From positions 248,001-312,000 of the forward strand of contig JALDZX010000005.1 in the NCBI GenBank assembly GCA_022813865.1: a stretch of DNA of 64,000 nt, given 5' to 3'. This DNA is from Xylographa opegraphella (lineage: Eukaryota). The notes below the pieces were generated by a model that saw only the letters and a list, made by a program, of their open reading frames with translations, did not search any database and was not told the origin of the DNA. The position numbers and the translations under genes are program-made. Of this stretch, positions 29,394 to 41,987 are shown piece by piece. Positions within the stretch are counted from its first letter, which is position 1, and every line of letters starts with the position of its first letter.

Positions 29394-32300
29394 ATGGGCT
29401 CCCGACTGGAAGCCAACTCATCGGCCGTCCGGAAGAGGATCGAGAAGCACAAATTCGAGAATGAGGAAGGGGAAGAGTATGGAGGGTCCAAGTTTGGCGG
29501 CTTTACGGATTATTTTCGGAGGAAGAAAATCAAGCTTCAGAACCTGGATGCTGAGCGTCGAGCATCCTCCGCTTATTCTCATCCGCCAATCTTTCGTGGG
29601 GTAGTTGGCCATGTAAATGGATATACGCAGCCGTCTCTTAATGATCTGCACGCTTTGATTGTGGATTATGGTGGTGGATTTATGCAGTACCTGGATGGGA
29701 AGACCACTGTTACCCACATCATTGCTAGTAACCTGACCCCCAAGAAGAAAATCGAATTCTCTAAGTACCGAATTGTGAAGCCAGCTTGGGTTGTGGATAG
29801 TATTGAGGCTGGCAAGTTGCTGCCTTGGGAGAATTACAGAGTTGTAGACGAAGGGGTCAACCAACAAGTTCTCGGATTCAAGAATGGCGGAATCATCAGC
29901 CAAGCTAACAGCCAGTATGGGGGCTATCGAGATCAGATGGAAACAAGCTGGTACACCAGCCAAGTCAAGGCTGCTGCGAAAATCTTGGACGGGCAGAATG
30001 CCGACGACGACGACATCGATATACCTTTCCCGAGCACGCAGGTGGACCGTGTCCAAAATCTAGAAGCAGATCACGAGAGCGAGGAGATCCCGTCAATCCG
30101 AGAAATTGACAAAATAGCCGATTACAGATATCCACATGATGGCATCCCAATGAGAGAATACGAGAAGTCAAAGCTTGATCCAATTGTCGGGTTAGAGCAG
30201 GAATTTCACATCAACGAATCAAAAGAATGTGATGATACCATATCGCCTAATTCATACGCAGCAAGTGGTTCTGGGGACAATTTGTCAGGAGCTAAGAAAG
30301 AGGATGGTTCGATCAATCATGGTAGCACGGCCATTCAAGAGGTAGAGTTGAAAGCGGATGTGACCAGCTATTCTGGCAGATCGCCCCAAATGGCATGCAT
30401 GACTGCTGAGGAACACAATGCTCTTCTCTTGGCCGATCCGAAAGTGTGGAGGTCCACAGTTGTAAACCCGGGCTTTTTAAAGCAATACTATGAAGAGTCA
30501 CGCCTTCATCATCTCTCAGCATGGAAATCAGAGTTGAAGTCACAACTACAGGCGCTAGCATCAGAAAATTCAGCTTCGCAAAAATCACGTCGGAGACCAC
30601 CTGGAGCGAGAGGGTACATACTCCATGTTGACTTTGACAGCTTCTTTGCAGCAGTATCGTTGAAAAAGTGTCCTCAATATGCTGATAAACCTGCAGTAGT
30701 GGCACATGGTGGAGGTTCTGGCTCGGAGATAGCAAGTTGTAACTATCCAGCTCGGAAATATGGTATCAAGAATGGCATGTGGATGAAAACTGCTCAGCAG
30801 TTGTATCCGGATCTCAAGGTTCTTCCGTACGACTTCAAGGCATATGAAGAAGCTTCTCGAGATTTCTACGATGCATCCATGAACACTGGTGGAATTGTTC
30901 AATCTGTCAGTGTTGACGAGTGCCTGATAGATATAAGTCTCGCATGCCTCGAAACTGGCGGCCACGAAGGTCAGGCCGTTGCTGAGGGAAGTATATGGCG
31001 CGAGCAAGCCAAAGCAGACGACATTGCGCTCCACCTACGGAACCAGGTGAAAGCGAAAACTGGTTGCGCCGTTTCTGTTGGAATTGGTGGAAACATCTTG
31101 CTTGCGAAAGTCGCGACCCGTAGAGCTAAACCCGCTGGCCAATACCAGATAAAACCCGATGAGATTCTTGACTTCGTTGGAGCACTCAGCGTGCAAGACT
31201 TGCCCGGCGTCGCTTGGAGTATTGGTGGAAAGCTGGAAGAAATCGGAATCAAGCTAGTAAAGGACATCAGGGAGACTTCTAAAGAGAAGCTGGTCACCAC
31301 TCTTGGTCCGAAAACAGGACGAAAGCTCTGGGACTATTCCAGAGGCATCGACCGTGTCGAGGTAGGTGAGCAGCCTGTGCGCAAATCTGTTTCGGCTGAA
31401 GTGAATTGGGGTATTCGCTTCGTCACACAAGAACAGGCAGATGAATTTGTGCAGAGTCTCTGTGAAGAATTACACAAGCGGTTACTCAATGAAGGTGTCA
31501 GAGGACTTCAGCTCACAATGAAGATAATGAGAAAATCCCCAGACGCACCACTTGATCCACCGAAACATTTAGGTCATGGGAAATGTGACACTTTCAACAA
31601 AAGCGTCGTTTTAGGGATTGCTACGAATGCGAAGGAAGTTCTTGGGCGTGAAGCCATATCGATCATGCGCGGATGGGGTTTTCCTCCAGGGGAGTTGAGA
31701 GGCATTGGCGTACAGATGACCAAATTGGAACCTATCAAGAGACTTGGCGACCTCTACGCAGAGGGTAGCCAAAGGCGCTTACAGTTTGCCAAATCTACGC
31801 AAAGCCCTAGCTTAAAACACGTTCATGACCATATCGAAGATAGCGAAGACCCAGAGAAGGATCTAGCCATTCCAAAGCTCATCGAAGACCCAATTGACGA
31901 CATTGAAAGCCCTCAGAAGCCGAAAGTCCAACACATCCACCCAGCTGCCACTCTGACAGCTGCGCCAACAATGGACATTGAGTCTAGCAATCTGCTCAAT
32001 ACACTTGGAACTCAATTTGTGCTACCGTCCCAGGTCGACGCGGAGGTACTTGCTGAGCTTCCTGCGGATATAAGGTCAAAGTTTCTGCCTATTCCGAATA
32101 CCACAAAGGTCCAGAGCGATCATGATAAAGTTGAACAAACGAAATCGCGTTCTCAGTCCCCTGCAGTATCGCTGAACGGTCTTCCAACGCAATCTCAGCT
32201 CGATCAAGAAACACTTGATGCACTTCCCGCTGATGTTCGTGCGGAGATTCTGGCATTTTATCAGAAGTCGCCACAGAAAGCTCGTACCCAGAGTGTTCTC

Positions 32301-32990
32301 CCACAATCCCCTCGCAAAGCTCGCACTGTCAAAGTATCTAGCAAGAAACTTACCACCCCTACTAAGAAACGCATCGGTCTTCTTTCTCGTGGTCGGCCAG
32401 CTCGCAGACTTGACTCGAACTCTACCCTGACTCAGTCTAACTTTGTTGCTCTCCACAGCAACACCGGTAATCCAAGTGGATCGAAAAATGACTCTGCAAC
32501 AGAGGATATATCGGCTGAATTCCTTGAGGCACTACCGGAAGACATTCGTATTGAAGTTCTAGCACAGCAGCGACGCGATCGCCTGAAGAAGCGTGGTGGG
32601 ATTGATCTTCTAACCCGACGAAAGCGTCAACAACCCCAAGCACCACAAGGGCAACGACGAATACGTCTAGCACCACGGCCCCCAAGACCAACTTTTACTG
32701 GGCAGAATTTGAGCTCTTTAGCCGATCTTAGAGAAGCGGTCAGTGCTTGGGTCGAAGAATTCAGCGACGAAGAGCCATATAGAGACGACGTCGAAGCACT
32801 GGTAGCGTATCTTAGGAGGGTAATCATCGACGAGAATGACATGGCCAAGGCTGTCAGTGTAGCGAAATGGTTAGGGTGGATTATCGGCCAGAGTTCAGGA
32901 GCTGCGTATTGGGACAAGTCGCTGAAGACTGTTCAGGAGGGCATCCAGCTTGCTGTGAAAGAGCGAGGGTTGGGAATGGTGGACTTTTAA
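29394..32990 (+). CDS. REV1: Y-family translesion polymerase Rev1
   Basis: BRCT (VNGYTQPS...VKPAWVVDSI), SRLHHLS N-digit, HVDFDSFF, SCNYPAR, SVDE, RKSVSAEVNWGIRF, three UBM-like (L/E)ALPxDIR repeats and a C-terminal domain. Confidence 0.96.
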   Translation: MGSRLEANSSAVRKRIEKHKFENEEGEEYGGSKFGGFTDYFRRKKIKLQNLDAERRASSAYSHPPIFRGVVGHVNGYTQPSLNDLHALIVDYGGGFMQYLDGKTTVTHIIASNLTPKKKIEFSKYRIVKPAWVVDSIEAGKLLPWENYRVVDEGVNQQVLGFKNGGIISQANSQYGGYRDQMETSWYTSQVKAAAKILDGQNADDDDIDIPFPSTQVDRVQNLEADHESEEIPSIREIDKIADYRYPHDGIPMREYEKSKLDPIVGLEQEFHINESKECDDTISPNSYAASGSGDNLSGAKKEDGSINHGSTAIQEVELKADVTSYSGRSPQMACMTAEEHNALLLADPKVWRSTVVNPGFLKQYYEESRLHHLSAWKSELKSQLQALASENSASQKSRRRPPGARGYILHVDFDSFFAAVSLKKCPQYADKPAVVAHGGGSGSEIASCNYPARKYGIKNGMWMKTAQQLYPDLKVLPYDFKAYEEASRDFYDASMNTGGIVQSVSVDECLIDISLACLETGGHEGQAVAEGSIWREQAKADDIALHLRNQVKAKTGCAVSVGIGGNILLAKVATRRAKPAGQYQIKPDEILDFVGALSVQDLPGVAWSIGGKLEEIGIKLVKDIRETSKEKLVTTLGPKTGRKLWDYSRGIDRVEVGEQPVRKSVSAEVNWGIRFVTQEQADEFVQSLCEELHKRLLNEGVRGLQLTMKIMRKSPDAPLDPPKHLGHGKCDTFNKSVVLGIATNAKEVLGREAISIMRGWGFPPGELRGIGVQMTKLEPIKRLGDLYAEGSQRRLQFAKSTQSPSLKHVHDHIEDSEDPEKDLAIPKLIEDPIDDIESPQKPKVQHIHPAATLTAAPTMDIESSNLLNTLGTQFVLPSQVDAEVLAELPADIRSKFLPIPNTTKVQSDHDKVEQTKSRSQSPAVSLNGLPTQSQLDQETLDALPADVRAEILAFYQKSPQKARTQSVLPQSPRKARTVKVSSKKLTTPTKKRIGLLSRGRPARRLDSNSTLTQSNFVALHSNTGNPSGSKNDSATEDISAEFLEALPEDIRIEVLAQQRRDRLKKRGGIDLLTRRKRQQPQAPQGQRRIRLAPRPPRPTFTGQNLSSLADLREAVSAWVEEFSDEEPYRDDVEALVAYLRRVIIDENDMAKAVSVAKWLGWIIGQSSGAAYWDKSLKTVQEGIQLAVKERGLGMVDF

Positions 32991-33446
32991 TCATATTATG
33001 TTCATCGACATACAGAGTCCAAACTGTCGATATCATGAACACGACGAACTGTAGACACCATGAGCACGACCTTCTTTGATGATGATAACGTGGGTCATCT
33101 TGATGATTTCAGTCCAATTCGGTCGTTTGACTGCATCAGGCCCTTTGCTGTTCCACGTTACGATTGGGCACGTAAGCGAGCGACGGCATGTGGTTGGTTA
33201 GTACCTTACCTTAGGGAGACTCGGAGATCACGATCATCCACAACTTTAGCACAAACGTCAGCAAAGTTTTCTGAAACGAGATATCATGTATCTGTGAAGG
33301 AATACTCTCTATCAATAGTACTGTAGCCATGTTTTCAAGGTACTCCGTACTAATGCTGCCAATGCTCCAAATCTTGGTAAACTTAAGTGCGTCTCAGCCT
33401 TGTCGCTACAATTGATCCGGCGGTCAAACCTAAGGTACATTGTCAA

Positions 33447-34820
33447 ATGCCATACACGACAGTGCCATGGGGGCCCATCTTGGTAGGAGGCAGCCTCCAG
33501 AGCCTATACACTGTTTGTGTGCAATGCTTCAACGACTGTCAGCTTGACCAAGCTACGGGTGGAGATGAAGATATCTTTCCAACCAAACTCAATAACCAAA
33601 AGGCTCGTTTTATGAGCTGGGGCCATACCGTGGGGCTTTCTGAAGATGACCGCTACCAGTATATCTGCGGAAAACCAGATTTCCGGCTTGAGGTTGTTCG
33701 GGTAATGAAGCGTGTGATCAGTTGTCTGGAGGAGATCAAGGTGTCGCTCAGCAGGCACAGCCTACGGCAAGAAGAATCCCGGAGCAGCTTCATTCTGGCA
33801 CAGAGATTCGGAAGAGTAGGTGCTTTTCGAACGAACCTTGGGCTATTTTGCAATCGATTCACGTGCTTTTCCTTTCGTCGACGACGAAGTACTGAGGCTC
33901 ATCGTATGATAGTCGACCCGGAGACGATGACGGCCCTAGTCGAAGAGCTTCGAGGGCTGATTGACAGCTTGATATCAGTTACAGAATCCTCCGGACCGCT
34001 CGAGCTACAGCGCCCCTTCAAGGCGTGCTGGAGTATCAAACCAAGACCGAAATTCACATGTATCGATATAGATCAGCCAGAATCTCTGATAAACCACGCT
34101 GCCACATCGGCCTCCAAAGAAGTATTTGCTACAATTGTCAAGAAGGATGGCTTGACTCGTACTGCGCTCTTGCGTAGACTCAAAAAATCCAAAAGACTGC
34201 TCGGTGGCTACTCCGACTCCGCCAAACGCATCATAATCGACCTGTCCCAAGTGGCGGAATACGACACACTGCATGAGAACTTCAGCTTAGCGCCATTCGA
34301 CGACGACATTTTCAACTGTCTTGGTACTATATACGGACCACCAGGCACACCATACGATGGTGGAATTTTCTACCTCTGGATCAAGTTCCCCACCGACTAC
34401 CCATTCAACCCGCCGAAAATCCGAGTTCTTACTAAAATCTACCATCCGAACATCGGTCCAGACGGTCATATTTGGTTGGACGTGCTTCGCGAAATGTGGT
34501 CCCCGGCCTTGACGATATCACACGTGTTACTTTCGATTAGTTCTTTCCTAAATGACCCCAATCCCGATCGATCGCTGGTCCAGCAGGCTTCGGAGCAGTT
34601 CAAGAAGGACAGAGCTGCTTACGAAAACAACGTCCGTACATATGTAAAACGATACGCCACAGGCGAGCTTCCTTCTCTGATCGAGCTTAAAGCAGAACCA
34701 CAAGCCAGCCTTACCCGATCCGCAAGCACGACTACGAGCAATTATACCTATGTTGGAGACTTCAAGCCTCTGAAAAAGCGGTGTCTAGGAATATCCTTTG
34801 CAGAAAATCGTGCTGATTAG
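33447..34820 (+). CDS. HeLo (prion-inhibition/cell-death) domain fused to a UBC/E2-fold domain lacking the catalytic Cys
   Basis: N-terminal SLYTVCVQCF...KLNNQKARFMSWGHTVGL...IVDPETMTALVEELRGLIDSL resembles HeLo. C-terminal GPPGTPYDGGIF...FPTDYPFNPPKI...TKIYHPNIGPDGHIWLDVL...WSPALTI is Ubc4-like. A short final intron and exon to about 34898 is possible. Confidence 0.82.
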   Translation: MPYTTVPWGPILVGGSLQSLYTVCVQCFNDCQLDQATGGDEDIFPTKLNNQKARFMSWGHTVGLSEDDRYQYICGKPDFRLEVVRVMKRVISCLEEIKVSLSRHSLRQEESRSSFILAQRFGRVGAFRTNLGLFCNRFTCFSFRRRRSTEAHRMIVDPETMTALVEELRGLIDSLISVTESSGPLELQRPFKACWSIKPRPKFTCIDIDQPESLINHAATSASKEVFATIVKKDGLTRTALLRRLKKSKRLLGGYSDSAKRIIIDLSQVAEYDTLHENFSLAPFDDDIFNCLGTIYGPPGTPYDGGIFYLWIKFPTDYPFNPPKIRVLTKIYHPNIGPDGHIWLDVLREMWSPALTISHVLLSISSFLNDPNPDRSLVQQASEQFKKDRAAYENNVRTYVKRYATGELPSLIELKAEPQASLTRSASTTTSNYTYVGDFKPLKKRCLGISFAENRAD

Positions 34821-35021: not shown

Positions 35022-37040
35022 CTACCAGGATATCCCATAGGTCGCCGAAATCACTCCCACCAGTACGACAACTATCTGTGTCCGACCCATCTTACTTTCT
35101 TTCCACGAAAACGGATTCTGTACTACGATGCCTGCGCCCACTGATGTTGCAGACGCCGCTGCAGTCCCCGTCGTCGTCGTCGCTATCTCAATAGCCGGCA
35201 TATAAGTACTCTTGTGGGCATCGAACGCTAAACAAGCAGTTGGCATCGCAAACGTCGTTGCTAGAGGCGTGTACGCGGTCTGATGCACCCCACCGACGAG
35301 GCCATGCGGACCCAGGGTTGCCTGTGCCACGAATCCCACTGCAAGCTCCACATCCGGCACGATATGGGTAAGATTGCCAAAGAGGCGAAGAACGTCGTTC
35401 ACGAGCGAGACATTGGTGATGGGCTCGCACTTCTCGTTCGTGCCAGCTGCAGGAGCAATCTCCATCGCCAGCTGCGGCAGCTCTAGGAAGGCTCCGGCAC
35501 CAGCGTTACCACCCATGCCGTTCAGGAACGAGAAGCCGACGAGGATCTCCGGCTGGAGCGTCGCGCTGAGGTTGAGGGCGAGATTACCGACCGCCGCTTG
35601 GAAAGGCAGCATGGAGACGTTCGTGTTTTCGAAGCCGCTCACGGACGAGCCGGTGATGTTACCGATACTGGCGGTGGCGGTGGAATTTTCCGGTACGGTG
35701 ATCTCGAAGCCGTAGTTGAAGGATAAGTCGACGCCGGTATCTACCGCGATGAGAAGGCGTGGGTTGAAGAGAGGCCCGATCACCGCAATGTCTGGGATGG
35801 AGTAGGGCTGCAAGGGGATGGTGGCGAGGTTGATGGTAAAGGTATGGCCGACTTGGGCGGCGAGCCATGTGGTAGAGAGTTCAATGTGTGCGAAGAGGTT
35901 GGTGGCTGTGACGGATACGAAGCCATCTTCGATGAAGCGGATGATGTCGTCGGTGCCGTTGGAGGTTGCGTTATTGTTGCCGAGGACAAAGGAACCGGCC
36001 AGGACCTCGAGAGTCCCTGCAGTGGTGCAGTTGACGCAGCTGACGGAGATGCCTGGTGGGATCTCGAGGCCTTCGGCATCTGCGACGACAGAGTTGTTGG
36101 AAGGAAGTATTTGCGTGTTGAGGAGCTGGAAGCCTATATTCTGTATGATGCTTGTGGCGGTAGGCTGCTCGGTTACCACGGGCGTGGGAAAAGGGATCTC
36201 GGAAGTTGGAGTTAGAATGGTAGTCGAAGAGACTAGGATGCTGGAGAGAGAAACAGATTGTATGGTGGAAGTTGCTGCCCCAAGGTCTTGGATGACGGAA
36301 GAGAAGAAATCCCTCCTCTCGAGATGCTTATAGGGTCTAGGAGTGTATTGTTGTGTCCCATCCCGTCCAAAGTCCACTTTCAGTGAGTGGAAGCCGTCGT
36401 TCCATCCGACAAGCTCGATGGCAAGTGCAATCATGTTGTTCTCGTCATTATAAGAGGCTCCGCGAACACTGCATCATATTAGCGATAGTTCGTCCAGATA
36501 GAGCTGGATGGGAGATCATGCAGATATGGCAACCGGCTCCCAACATCGTTACAGCTCCAGTGCGAAGTGATGAGCGTAAAGGTGGAATGCGGCAAAAGCG
36601 TCTCCCACGCCATCTGCATGCGGTGTAGGGAGCTGAATGTCATCTGGATCGAATCCATTGTGCAGTCGACGGATTCAAGGAGATGGTCGATGTCTTCCAA
36701 AATGAAAACAGGTCTTGTTGATTGCAGATGCACATGAGCGCTGTATGGACTATTGCTGGCGCTGGATTCATCTAATTACTGTCAGATTTGCTGGAGACCC
36801 GAAGTTGGGATATCTGCCTTCGAGGTAATGCAAGCTGAAGTCATAGCGTAAAGGGAAATCCTGCTCTCGCTTTGCAACGTCGCTGATCAAGGAGGCGGCT
36901 CGAAGTTCACGAGGTTCTAGGCTGGAAGAAAACATGCCAGGAGCATTCCCATCTGCAGAACTAGGTGATAGTTGCTGGAAAATCATAAGGAGAAGGGAAA
37001 GGTAGCATTCTAGGAACGAGAACGAGGATTTGCGATACAT
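35022..37040 (-). CDS. Secreted, probably GPI-anchored or C-terminally anchored surface protein, 3 exons
   Basis: Signal-like N-terminus, dibasic sites (KR, RR), ISVSCVNCTTAG, Thr/Ser-rich linker, TACLAFD, hydrophobic C-terminus; ORFs 36768-37040, 36479-36733 and 35022-36434 join in frame through introns 36772-36817 and 36469-36521. Confidence 0.8.
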
Positions 37041-39190: not shown

Positions 39191-39875
39191 GTATTCACAA
39201 AGGAATGAGGAGGAGAGTATAACAGACAATAAGGAACAAGAAAACAGGGATTGGCAAAGGAGAATCGATAAGTGACAGTATGATAAATAGACATAACGTC
39301 TTACGGAAGAAGCATCTCCGATGTGAACAATATATTTGTCTTGGTCTAGTAGGGAGTATTATAGTGTATATTGGATGAGTGTGGCTGCAACCGGATTGCA
39401 GCGCAACGAGCGGTAGGGACAAGTAATAGAACAGAATGTGAATTGGAAAACGAGGTGTGGTAGAAGGGTACGAAGAAGGAGTCAACTAGTGTTTAAAATG
39501 TACAGTAATAATGGGCGCGAAAGTGGCGGGGAGTGAGGCTGGTTGGAAGGCATGGGTGAGAATGCCGAACTAGTCTTAACAGGGCATAGGATAGGGCAGC
39601 AGCACAACTCTTGTTCCTAATCTCTTTGCTTCAGACTGTGAAGGTAGTCACTCAATTTACAATGGCAAGAGCAGGTTGCGTGAACGTGGGCTCTCGCGTA
39701 TGTATTCGTGCGCCAGGACAGAGTAGTGCTGATCGAGATATGAAAATCCTATACTTGTGAGACGAGTGCTTTTATTTCTTGTTGTCCCGGTGGGCTGTGC
39801 ATTGGCCAAATGCATTGCTCTAGGGCCTTCTAAAGTGAAGCAGGCTTTTTCCTGCTTGCTTTGTAGCAAAACATT

Positions 39876-41987
39876 ATGGATGTACATTTTGAAGGAGAGA
39901 TTCAATCGAGATATATGCTACAAGACGGAACACCCCTCCAGATAAATGTTACTGGTCTTGAGGATGATGCACAAACTAGAAGCTGCAGGGAACGGAATGA
40001 GAGGTTTTACAGTGCGGTCTTCTCATGGGCGAAAGACCAGGCTGGAATTAACGTCATCTTCGACAAGGACTCCTTGATAGTAGCCGCAGAGGCTTGGTCC
40101 AATGCTATTCATGCATTACTCCAATATCCAGCATTGCATCTAGGGTTAGATTCTGAAAGAAAGGCAAGAATCTTTACAAACTATTGGCACCACCCGCTCG
40201 TGAAGGAAACAGATATACGGCTTTTTCATATAACTGGCATGGCCGCAATTGATGGATCCAATTACCTCACTTGCGAGATTGTACATGCCGACCTCAACGA
40301 TAAGCCCAATTATCATGCTGTTTCTTATGCTTGGGGGTCCTTGGACGTCAATTATCCTATCATTATCGACGAGTCCCATTGTCTCTTGATCACCAAGTCG
40401 TTGCAGGATTTTTTAGAACAGGCATTCTTGTCTTCTGAGAAGATCGAAGGAGCTCTAATATGGGCAGACCAGCTATGCATCAATCAATACAACCCAGAAG
40501 AGAGGAGCCAGCAGGTCTTGCTTATGCGTCGAATCTTCCAGGAGTCATGCCTTACTTATCTTTGGCTGGGGAAAGAGGACGAGAGTACCGCACATCTGGC
40601 ATCACTGTTGGCGAGCATTGAGGCAAGCTCGCTCAGATACGATACGGCAGTAAAAGCATGTAATCAACCTTCAGTGGAAGAGGCTGTATCAATTCTGGCA
40701 TCTGACCCGGCCACAGCTCGTATACCACCAGGTCACGACCCTGGGTGGCTGGCGGCAGCACAAATTCTGTATCGACCCTGGTTCTCGCGGTTGTGGGTTT
40801 TCCAAGAAGCTGTAGCAGCTCCCGTATCCTTTTTTGTATGTGGAAAATACCCATTCAGCTTAGATACATTGGAGTTAGCACTGATACTGCTTCCTACGAT
40901 GTGGTCAAACGTACTATTTCAAAGCACCTACCCCTTTCACACTGTTGGCTTTATGAGAACACAGCATAGTATGTTTCACGGTCCGAAAGCCAGGTATGAT
41001 CGCTACCGCCAAGATCTACTACAACTCTTGTCTAATGCACGCACCCTCGAATGTTATGACCCTCGAGATCGAGTCTACGCGCTTTTGAGTCTCCAACCAG
41101 AGGAAAATCATATCATTGTACCTATAGATTATAGCCGCTCGGTCTTCGAAACGTATGCCGATACCGCGAAAGCGATAGCCCTCGACCAGCGGAATCTTCA
41201 CATTCTGGAACACATCACGGAAGAGAGGGATTTAAACTGTTTGGTGGCACCTTCCTGGGTCCCCAATTGGATGGACAAGGAGTACAGCAGCAGATGCCCG
41301 CTTGAAGCAGACCTAGTAAAGCAGCGCAAATTCAATGCCGGTGGTTGTCCTTCCTGCACACCAGAATTTGCGAACTCAGGACAGATTCTCGTCACTAAAG
41401 GGAAAATCATTGATATCATTGAGCTTTTGGTGTCGGACGTGCTCTACATTGGTGGCCGGCATGGTGCGAGTGCGGAGTTTCTTGCCAAGGAACTACGCTT
41501 TCAAATTTTGATGGATTTGGTTGGAAAGCGATTGCTCGAAGAAACGCCCGGTGTGCCACAACTCGAGCGAGCTCAACTTATAGTCGTCAGAACGCTCACT
41601 GCAGACGGCACGCGAATTCTAAGAACCCCAACAATCTCGCATTTCAATGAATACCATACCTTGGCACTGGCTGATATGCTTCGGGATCCACAATCGCGAT
41701 CCGAGCACGCTCTTGATGCCTTCCGAAAGCTGTCTCCCCTGCTATACATTTGCAGTGGAAGAGTGATTGCAGCGTTGCGTAATGGCTACATCTGCCTGGC
41801 TCCTATGATGGCACAGAAGAATGATGTGATTGGTCTCCTTCAAGGTAGCTCTCTGCCCTGGGTCTTGCGACCTCAAGCCAAAAATGGGCAGTACAAGGTT
41901 GTGGGAGCATGTTATGTTGACGGCATAATGTATAATGAACAGGGGGATACCGCCGAAATTCTTTCTAGTACTATAGAATTAATATAG
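39876..41987 (+). CDS. HET-domain (Het-6-like) heterokaryon incompatibility protein
   Basis: IRL...YHAVSYAWG, IWADQLCINQ...ERSQQVLLMRRIF, YLWLG, RPWFSRLWVFQE, DPRDRVYALL, PSWVPNW, C-terminal VGACYVDGIM. Confidence 0.92.
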   Translation: MDVHFEGEIQSRYMLQDGTPLQINVTGLEDDAQTRSCRERNERFYSAVFSWAKDQAGINVIFDKDSLIVAAEAWSNAIHALLQYPALHLGLDSERKARIFTNYWHHPLVKETDIRLFHITGMAAIDGSNYLTCEIVHADLNDKPNYHAVSYAWGSLDVNYPIIIDESHCLLITKSLQDFLEQAFLSSEKIEGALIWADQLCINQYNPEERSQQVLLMRRIFQESCLTYLWLGKEDESTAHLASLLASIEASSLRYDTAVKACNQPSVEEAVSILASDPATARIPPGHDPGWLAAAQILYRPWFSRLWVFQEAVAAPVSFFVCGKYPFSLDTLELALILLPTMWSNVLFQSTYPFHTVGFMRTQHSMFHGPKARYDRYRQDLLQLLSNARTLECYDPRDRVYALLSLQPEENHIIVPIDYSRSVFETYADTAKAIALDQRNLHILEHITEERDLNCLVAPSWVPNWMDKEYSSRCPLEADLVKQRKFNAGGCPSCTPEFANSGQILVTKGKIIDIIELLVSDVLYIGGRHGASAEFLAKELRFQILMDLVGKRLLEETPGVPQLERAQLIVVRTLTADGTRILRTPTISHFNEYHTLALADMLRDPQSRSEHALDAFRKLSPLLYICSGRVIAALRNGYICLAPMMAQKNDVIGLLQGSSLPWVLRPQAKNGQYKVVGACYVDGIMYNEQGDTAEILSSTIELI

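Follow-up and report, generated by a model that had tools for sequence, protein, structure and literature searches.

Introduction

HeLo-type cell-death executioners are controlled by amyloid templating, by NOD-like receptors (NLRs) or, in the case of HELL domains, by kinase or pseudokinase modules. Folds of ubiquitin-conjugating enzymes (E2s) that lack the catalytic Cys are represented by the ubiquitin E2 variant (UEV) type, to which Mms2/UBE2V and TSG101 belong, and these are old, stable lineages. Here we describe a gene that encodes both kinds of fold in one protein, with a HeLo domain at the N-terminus and, at the C-terminus, a ubiquitin-conjugating (UBC) fold in which Trp stands in place of the catalytic Cys. 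The gene lies in a stretch of 64,000 nucleotides from Xylographa opegraphella (GenBank assembly GCA_022813865.1, contig JALDZX010000005.1, positions 248,001 to 312,000 of the forward strand), which is referred to below as the window and provides the numbering used throughout. The encoded protein is called P0001, and proteins of this architecture are called HeLo-E2 (or HeLo-UBC) proteins.

In nearly all HeLo proteins the HeLo domain is placed first, and these proteins have been proposed to form a class of pore-forming toxins (PMC3531502). The HeLo domain of HET-S kills when refolding of the C-terminal domain frees a transmembrane segment, some 34 residues long, that lies buried at the N-terminus (PMC3531502). 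Every HeLo domain studied experimentally is a cell-death executioner (PMC3531502; PMC12881547). HeLo and HELL domains are relatives of MLKL's four-helix bundle, and some fungal HELL domains are fused to a kinase or pseudokinase (PMC12881547). In mammals, ubiquitylation of the HeLo-like domain of MLKL redirects the executioner (PMC8816944). Fusion of an E2 to another domain is also on record: a PARP-Ubc protein, consisting of a PARP6-like catalytic domain together with a C-terminal UBCc domain, is widespread in fungi (bioRxiv 10.64898/2026.07.25.740670).

Results

P0001 matches exactly two Pfam families at E ≤ 10, HeLo (PF14479) in its N-terminal half and UQ_con (PF00179; residues 275-399, E 2.6e-40, 137.7 bits against a cut-off of 27) in its C-terminal half. 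No amyloid or prion-motif family was found in this Pfam scan at the same threshold. An initial annotation of the locus had assigned the N-terminal ~180 residues to HeLo and had noted that an amyloid motif was missing, and both statements hold. On their own, residues 1-200 hit the sequences of the HET-s/HET-S HeLo domain in solved crystal structures (2wvn, E 8.5e-6, with 2wvq and 2wvo besides); residue 7 of the query falls on residue 6 of HET-s, which locates HeLo at the extreme N-terminus. The best chain matches of the C-terminal half are Ubc4/UBE2D, with Ubc4 (9b55_A) at E 9.1e-45.

The AlphaFold2 model built on a 68-sequence alignment has a mean predicted local distance difference test score (pLDDT) of 76 and was used throughout; a shallower 10-sequence alignment gave a mean of 40 and an unusable model. 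The four HeLo helices (residues 17-33, 43-61, 77-102 and 158-181) are all confident, and pLDDT exceeds 90 over most of the UBC core (residues 257-405). When superposed by Foldseek on UBE2D2 (7bol), the UBC part of the model gives a template modelling (TM) score of 0.96 normalised to the target, a root-mean-square deviation of 1.1 Å and 50% identity. The Foldseek list obtained for the whole model against the PDB is filled by E2 chains and speaks for the UBC half only. HeLo and UBC are connected by a long predicted helix, for which pLDDT in ten-residue blocks is 90-96 across residues 221-260 and 55 for residues 211-220; in the model this helix is a possible brace between the two domains. Residues 1-13, 108-153, 188-214 and 422-451 are disordered. 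Prediction of a complex between HeLo (residues 1-190) and helix plus UBC (residues 212-410) gave a score of 0.00, which without controls is uninformative either way.

The UBC motifs GTPY, FPTDYPFNPP, HPN and WSPALTI are all present in the translation and the fold is intact. In HMMER alignments to Ubc4/UbcH5 chains the query GHIWLD lies over GSICLD, which places Trp343 on Cys85, and the TGG codon was read directly. The observation on which the initial annotation was built, a Cys-to-Trp change that bars the thioester at the canonical position of an otherwise intact E2 fold, is therefore confirmed. Judged by its sequence, P0001 is a UBC fold but not an active E2, because Trp replaces the catalytic Cys and no ubiquitin thioester would form at that position. 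The active-site gate loop is also changed, with Arg375-Ser376 at the positions of UBE2D D117-P118. In the UBE2D class D117 is needed for the transfer of ubiquitin to lysine (bioRxiv 10.1101/2025.09.05.674436). The median identity of the P0001 UBC domain is 0.50 to 20 plain E2s and 0.39 to 93 other HeLo-UBC members.

The start codon is the earliest ATG in a stop-to-stop frame that opens at 33387, with no in-frame ATG upstream, and the gene is colinear with the orthologue models P0002-P0008. We note that four Xylographa models (P0002, P0004, P0005 and P0008) begin about 10 residues later than P0001 (window 33447-33490) and so do without the opening part of the N-terminal helix; either the start codon chosen in annotation or a true shortening of the membrane helix may be the reason. 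The base composition of the gene is ordinary (GC 0.496 and third-position GC, GC3, 0.533, compared with 0.512 for the window; TpA/ApT 0.75). Repeat-induced point mutation or an odd composition was considered and rejected, no signature being seen in GC, GC3 or TpA/ApT. A tblastn search found no paralogue of the gene in the window (best other match, E 0.5).

Searching with a profile of ten HeLo+UBC proteins against 1.84 billion representatives returned such fusions at the top of the list. Membership was assigned with self-built hidden Markov models of both halves over 351 collected proteins, and the counts given here are of sequence clusters. By this measure 111 of the 351 are HeLo+UBC sequences, 314-1055 residues in length. 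Both Pfam domains are present in all 28 long members scanned, one of which has ankyrin repeats in addition, and an ESM Atlas cluster of 51 members carries HeLo and UBC in 100%, all from Ascomycota where the phylum is known. The proteins closest to P0001 (identity 48-63%) are HeLo+UBC proteins from seven Xylographa species, together with further sequences. The named members of the family come from Xylographa and Lambiella (Lecanoromycetes), Zopfia rhizophila (Dothideomycetes) and Thozetella sp. (Sordariomycetes); a homologue search with an alignment profile was flooded by plain E2s, and Zopfia rhizophila was its sole named addition.

The active-site residue is present in 108 of the 111 sequences. 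It is Cys in 99 (92%) and in the other nine W (P0001), S, Y, Y, G, G, L, L and A, while H, P and N of the HPN motif are each retained in 0.97-0.99 of the family. Since 99/108 keep Cys and nearly all keep HPN, the sequences indicate that the typical HeLo-E2 has what an E2 needs for catalysis and most likely works as an enzyme, and that the dead E2 is the exception. In a tree of the 108 sequences, calculated with the active-site column removed, the nine non-Cys states map as nine changes, each on a single tip, and at least eight of the nine losses are forced by well-supported branches. The initial annotation had drawn a parallel with the killer-plus-pseudoenzyme design of MLKL. A dead E2 as the design of the HeLo-UBC architecture is not borne out by the prevalence of Cys or by the nine separate tips, and six of the eight closest relatives of P0001 keep Cys. 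The UBC domain of the subclade to which P0001 belongs is Ubc4-like, which prompted us to consider replacement of the domain by a recent Ubc4 copy. This was not supported: in a 122-row tree of the UBC domain, where UBE2D-like E2s only serve as the outgroup, the 20 plain E2 rows fall on one side of a branch (Shimodaira-Hasegawa-like approximate likelihood ratio, SH-aLRT, 96) and the fusions on the other.

No publication pairing HeLo with an E2 was found among the matches listed in literature searches by domain and Pfam names. The word "ubiquitin" is absent from the available sections of a 2025 review of fungal regulated cell death (PMC12881547), and PMC9815663 names ubiquitin only for the Crinkler/Ubiquitin clan. 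The HeLo-E2 family is apparently undescribed in print.

Several further features of the collected proteins were observed. A subgroup of long members, 637-1055 residues (P0152, P0162, P0183, P0185, P0192, P0206, P0224, P0227 and relatives; 20 rows in the 108-sequence tree), has about 25 residues inserted after UBC position ~97, an active-site motif that mostly ends CADY instead of CLD, and long C-terminal tails without a Pfam domain; one of its members, P0245, has C-terminal ankyrin repeats. The closest HeLo relatives of the family include HeLo-only proteins of about 310-330 residues and HeLo+ankyrin proteins (P0184 from Varicellaria rhodocarpa, 306 residues, P0346 and P0350; P0347 and P0348). 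The same HeLo type thus occurs alone or with other C-terminal partners, although some of these may be truncated models. In many Pezizomycotina models (P0018, P0023, P0027, P0028, P0045 and others) a glutaryl-CoA/acyl-CoA dehydrogenase is joined to UQ_con of the Ubc4 type, which probably reflects adjacent genes run together in annotation and not a genuine fusion.

P0001-P0009 form a well-supported clade of nine sequences on a long stem (0.77), which we call the Xylographa-type subclade. H, P and N of the HPN motif are each present in all nine. D117 is kept in none of the nine (R, Q, H or E instead), compared with 0.82 of the other 102 family members and 0.97 of plain E2s; P118 is likewise kept in none (S, W or C instead), compared with 0.93 and 0.98. 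Cys is found in 6/9 subclade members and in 93/99 sequences elsewhere (Fisher p 0.026, the two samples being unequally dense), and was lost three separate times within the subclade, to W (P0001), S (P0006) and Y (P0009). The Cys column is one of 45 among the 147 subclade UBC columns in which the majority residue occurs in at most six of nine members; 54 of the 147 are invariant.

Ninety positions near-invariant in 151 plain E2s were used for comparison. At 18 of these (4, 22, 31, 36, 37, 56, 60, 62, 66, 86, 95-98, 100, 104, 115 and 128) the plain-E2 residue is retained in the subclade but has changed in the remaining family members; S22, F62, P95, A96, L97, T98 and L104 are among those retained. 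We take several of the 18 to be residues of UBE2D that contact the E3 ligase, the E1 activating enzyme or ubiquitin. At nine positions (35, 109, 117, 118, 121, 123, 124, 130 and 142), clustered in the gate loop and the following helix, it is the subclade that has diverged and the rest that keeps the residue. The pattern points to a subclade E2 that keeps Ubc4-like surfaces while losing its chemistry. The rest of the family keeps C85, HPN, D117 and P118 at 0.82-0.99 and RING-contact residues poorly (F62 0.40, A96 0.19), which hints at E3-independent or self-directed ubiquitylation in those proteins.

UBE2D3 C85S can still be loaded with ubiquitin as a stable oxyester (bioRxiv 10.1101/2025.09.05.674436), so that P0006 (Xylographa vitiligo), with Ser in place of the catalytic Cys, may hold ubiquitin in a trapped form instead of being dead. 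The subclade offers natural Cys, Ser, Tyr and Trp variants of one active site, usable for asking whether catalysis matters.

P0001 deviates at 6 of 29 family-conserved UBC positions (5-8 in its relatives), and among these changes only C85W is peculiar to P0001. The terminal branch measures 0.205 for UBC, 0.320 for HeLo and 0.603 for the linker; the UBC/linker rate ratio of 0.34 is the lowest in the subclade, and the overall terminal branch is 0.36 against a median of 0.43. In a simulation of neutral substitution, an open reading frame (ORF) would persist with P ~0.002 at 12% divergence if the whole terminal branch were neutral, so the branch is not wholly neutral. Little in the sequence says that the gene is visibly decaying. 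Simple decay, which the initial annotation had named as the alternative to its own reading, has little visible support, the ORF being intact and the branch ordinary; a recent null allele is the main alternative and is discussed below.

The neighbours of the gene in the window (Table 1) encode a PDI-like protein, ATG22, MED14, an M3 peptidase, GRASP, a TAF1-like DUF3591 protein and a kinase, and further REV1, a JmjC/PHD protein, KAR9, a mitochondrial carrier and an F-box protein; the neighbourhood is housekeeping in character. The HET-domain ORF is a second gene of cell-death/incompatibility type amid these otherwise housekeeping genes. The ubiquitin link of the REV1 neighbour is probably a coincidence. 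The window has 89 ORFs of at least 130 residues; a scan of the 41 largest turned up no NACHT/NB-ARC (NLR) gene, and a nearby NLR partner was rejected for these 41.

Table 1. Positions of the HeLo-E2 gene, its parts and selected neighbours in the window
Feature	Residues	Position	Strand	Basis or remark
HeLo-E2 gene	1-457	33447-34820	+	Single-exon ORF, 457 codons + stop: HeLo, spacer, helix, UBC, tail
N-terminal segment, equivalent of membrane-inserting HET-S helix	7-33	33465-33545	+	HET-s alignment
HeLo domain	16-186	33492-34004	+	PF14479, E 5e-20, 72.6 bits (cut-off 23.2)
Long predicted helix, HeLo-UBC connector, possible brace	215-252	34089-34202	+	AlphaFold2
UBC (E2) core, UBE2D/Ubc4-like	257-405	34215-34661	+	Pfam UQ_con, Ubc4 match, Foldseek
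HPN motif, retained	333-335	34443-34451	+	Direct read
TGG, Trp at catalytic Cys85 position	343	34473-34475	+	Codon read (att tgg ttg gac) and alignments
CGA TCG, Arg-Ser at UBE2D D117-P118 (active-site gate loop)	375-376	34569-34574	+	Alignment
C-terminal tail, mostly disordered	406-457	34662-34817	+	21-54% identity among 8 closest relatives; AlphaFold2
REV1-type Y-family polymerase		29394-32990	+	BRCT, IMS, ubiquitin-binding UBM, REV1_C; upstream neighbour
Ser/Thr-rich protein, DUF7223	470-483 in length	35022-36473	-	DUF7223 E 3.8e-10; convergent, immediately downstream of HeLo-E2 gene
HET-domain ORF	706 in length	39867-41987	+	PF06985, E 5.9e-23; 5 kb downstream of HeLo-E2 gene

Discussion

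Our preferred reading, to which we give a probability of roughly 40%, is that the E2 of the Xylographa-type subclade has drifted to a mainly non-catalytic binding or regulatory module for HeLo and that P0001 is still functional. The family is a large one of filamentous ascomycetes, and its members have HeLo first, followed by a spacer, a long predicted helix and an E2 core of the UBE2D/Ubc4 type. In this scheme a working E2 would, in most members, regulate HeLo or be delivered by it. In the derived subclade, which is found in Xylographa lichen fungi, catalysis would have drifted away while the fold, HPN and the surfaces by which Ubc4 contacts E1, E3 and ubiquitin were kept. In P0001 the E2-like module would hold or release HeLo non-catalytically, as the MLKL pseudokinase controls its four-helix bundle. 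That HeLo kills, that the C-terminal E2 module is its regulatory partner and that P0001 still functions we infer by analogy with HET-S and the HELL-kinase/pseudokinase proteins. The support at the level of the subclade is the loss of D117 and P118 in all nine members, the variable Cys column, the retained partner contacts and the low UBC/linker rate. For P0001 itself we tentatively suggest a binding-type regulator of a somewhat weakened HeLo.

Several observations weigh against this reading. All nine Cys-less states of the family are single tips and none is common to sister sequences, a pattern expected of short-lived null alleles, and Cys persists in most of the closest relatives of P0001. 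An open ORF is also compatible, in the simulation, with up to ~5% neutral nucleotide divergence since the Cys was lost (P 0.07). The HeLo half of the subclade is eroded as well: the six full-length members retain 10-14 of 23 family-conserved HeLo positions (13 in P0001), compared with a median of 20 in 89 others. The N-terminal helix is weaker, with a best 19-residue Kyte-Doolittle hydropathy of 0.22-1.51 in the subclade (1.23 in P0001); for 79 other family members the median is 1.92 and the 5th percentile 1.39. An eroded HeLo with a weaker helix could mean an overall loss of function of the subclade protein.

The main rival, which we regard as somewhat less likely, is a recent catalytic-null allele. 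It supposes that the thioester is needed even in the subclade and that the Cys-to-Trp change is young, fixed or segregating, in a fast-evolving accessory gene that would have been too short a time without function to gather more damage. A young null allele can be entertained because ~5% neutral divergence would leave the ORF open; the isolated tips and the Cys-bearing close relatives also agree with it. Elsewhere in the family the Cys-less P0190, P0210 and P0217 have long branches (0.96-1.16; median 0.35) and look decay-like. The three Cys-less copies of the subclade, however, are on short branches (0.17-0.29), and D117 and P118 had already been replaced in every one of the nine members. Cys was lost three times in nine subclade sequences against six times in 99 elsewhere, and its column is less conserved than about two thirds of the subclade UBC columns. 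These points weigh against a null allele.

The initial annotation had gone further and proposed that the Cys-less E2 is an integrated decoy of Ubc4, such that an effector or a disturbance of the ubiquitin system frees HeLo and the cell dies. We consider this quite improbable in full. The UBC domain of P0001 is closer to plain Ubc4/UBE2D than to other HeLo-UBC domains, a likeness that by itself is no proof of a decoy role, Ubc4 partner-contact residues are kept while residues of the catalytic cleft are changed, and the HET-domain ORF is 5 kb downstream. Against it, the model has no known effector, trigger or sensor partner, and the scanned ORFs of the window hold no NLR. Most of the family and most close relatives also keep the catalytic Cys, and the N-terminal helix of HeLo is weakened in the subclade. 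The interpretation offered in the initial annotation is thus partly supported. A wider form of the idea, which we place at a similarly low level, is that Xylographa-type HeLo-E2 proteins are self-contained guards: a mimic of Ubc4 with kept contact surfaces and dispensable catalysis would be wired to HeLo, and Ubc4-targeting molecules or a collapse of ubiquitin charging would free the killer with neither an NLR nor an amyloid relay. If true, ubiquitin conjugation in fungi would be coupled, through the HeLo-E2 family as a whole, to an executioner of necroptosis-like type.

Even less credence is given to HeLo as a membrane anchor rather than a killer, which would make the family a set of membrane-recruited E2 enzymes and P0001 an inactive one among them. 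Retention of catalytic residues without RING contacts in the rest of the family does suggest an enzyme with its own targets. This sits poorly with the record of experimentally studied HeLo domains, all of them executioners (PMC3531502; PMC12881547), and with the hydrophobic N-terminal helix, which is conserved in the family as in HET-S. A sequencing or assembly error, with TGT or TGC as the true codon, is very unlikely: TGG is one base from either, but Cys is missing as well from two subclade members in other assemblies, which have S (P0006) and Y (P0009) instead, and the ORF has no other anomaly.

In our view the family itself is a more interesting result than the single Cys-to-Trp change, which alone is modest. 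With an E2 as the partner of HeLo, regulated cell death in fungi would have one more logic of control, tied to the ubiquitin system.

Comparison with known systems

HET-S/HET-s of Podospora anserina, which combines HeLo with a prion-forming domain, resembles P0001 in having HeLo at the N-terminus. The two differ at the C-terminus, where HET-S has an amyloid motif and P0001 a UBC fold, and in their surroundings, since HET-S-type systems have an adjacent NLR with a matching motif and P0001 has none among the scanned window ORFs. The N-terminal helix of P0001 is also less hydrophobic than that of the rest of the HeLo-E2 family. MLKL, the plant MLKLs and the fungal HELL-kinase/pseudokinase proteins share with P0001 an N-terminal helical bundle, a helical connector and a possibly dead C-terminal enzyme fold (PMC12881547). 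In the MLKL-type proteins that fold is a kinase; in P0001 it is an E2, known here from sequence and predicted structure.

With UBE2D/Ubc4-5, beyond the close superposition, P0001 has in common HPN, S22, F62, S94-P95-A96, L104 and D87. It departs from UBE2D by C85W, D117R and P118S, by changes at 121, 123, 124 and 142, and by the 256-residue N-terminal extension that bears HeLo. The UEV proteins, like P0001, are UBC folds without the catalytic Cys and potential binders. In P0001 the loss belongs to one tip of a family that is 92% Cys-bearing, and the remaining E2 sequence is canonical; an absence of Cys common to a clade, as in a stable pseudo-E2 lineage, was not found among the nine Cys-less rows, which represent nine changes.

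PARP-Ubc parallels HeLo-E2 in that a C-terminal E2 is fused to an unrelated N-terminal effector. Its E2 is assigned to the UBE2Q subfamily and its partner is PARP; the available sections of that report make no mention of a HeLo fusion (bioRxiv 10.64898/2026.07.25.740670). HeLo-E2 is thus a variation on the pairing of a HeLo executioner with a regulatory domain, which is itself known, and the large family of HeLo-E2 proteins is apparently new.

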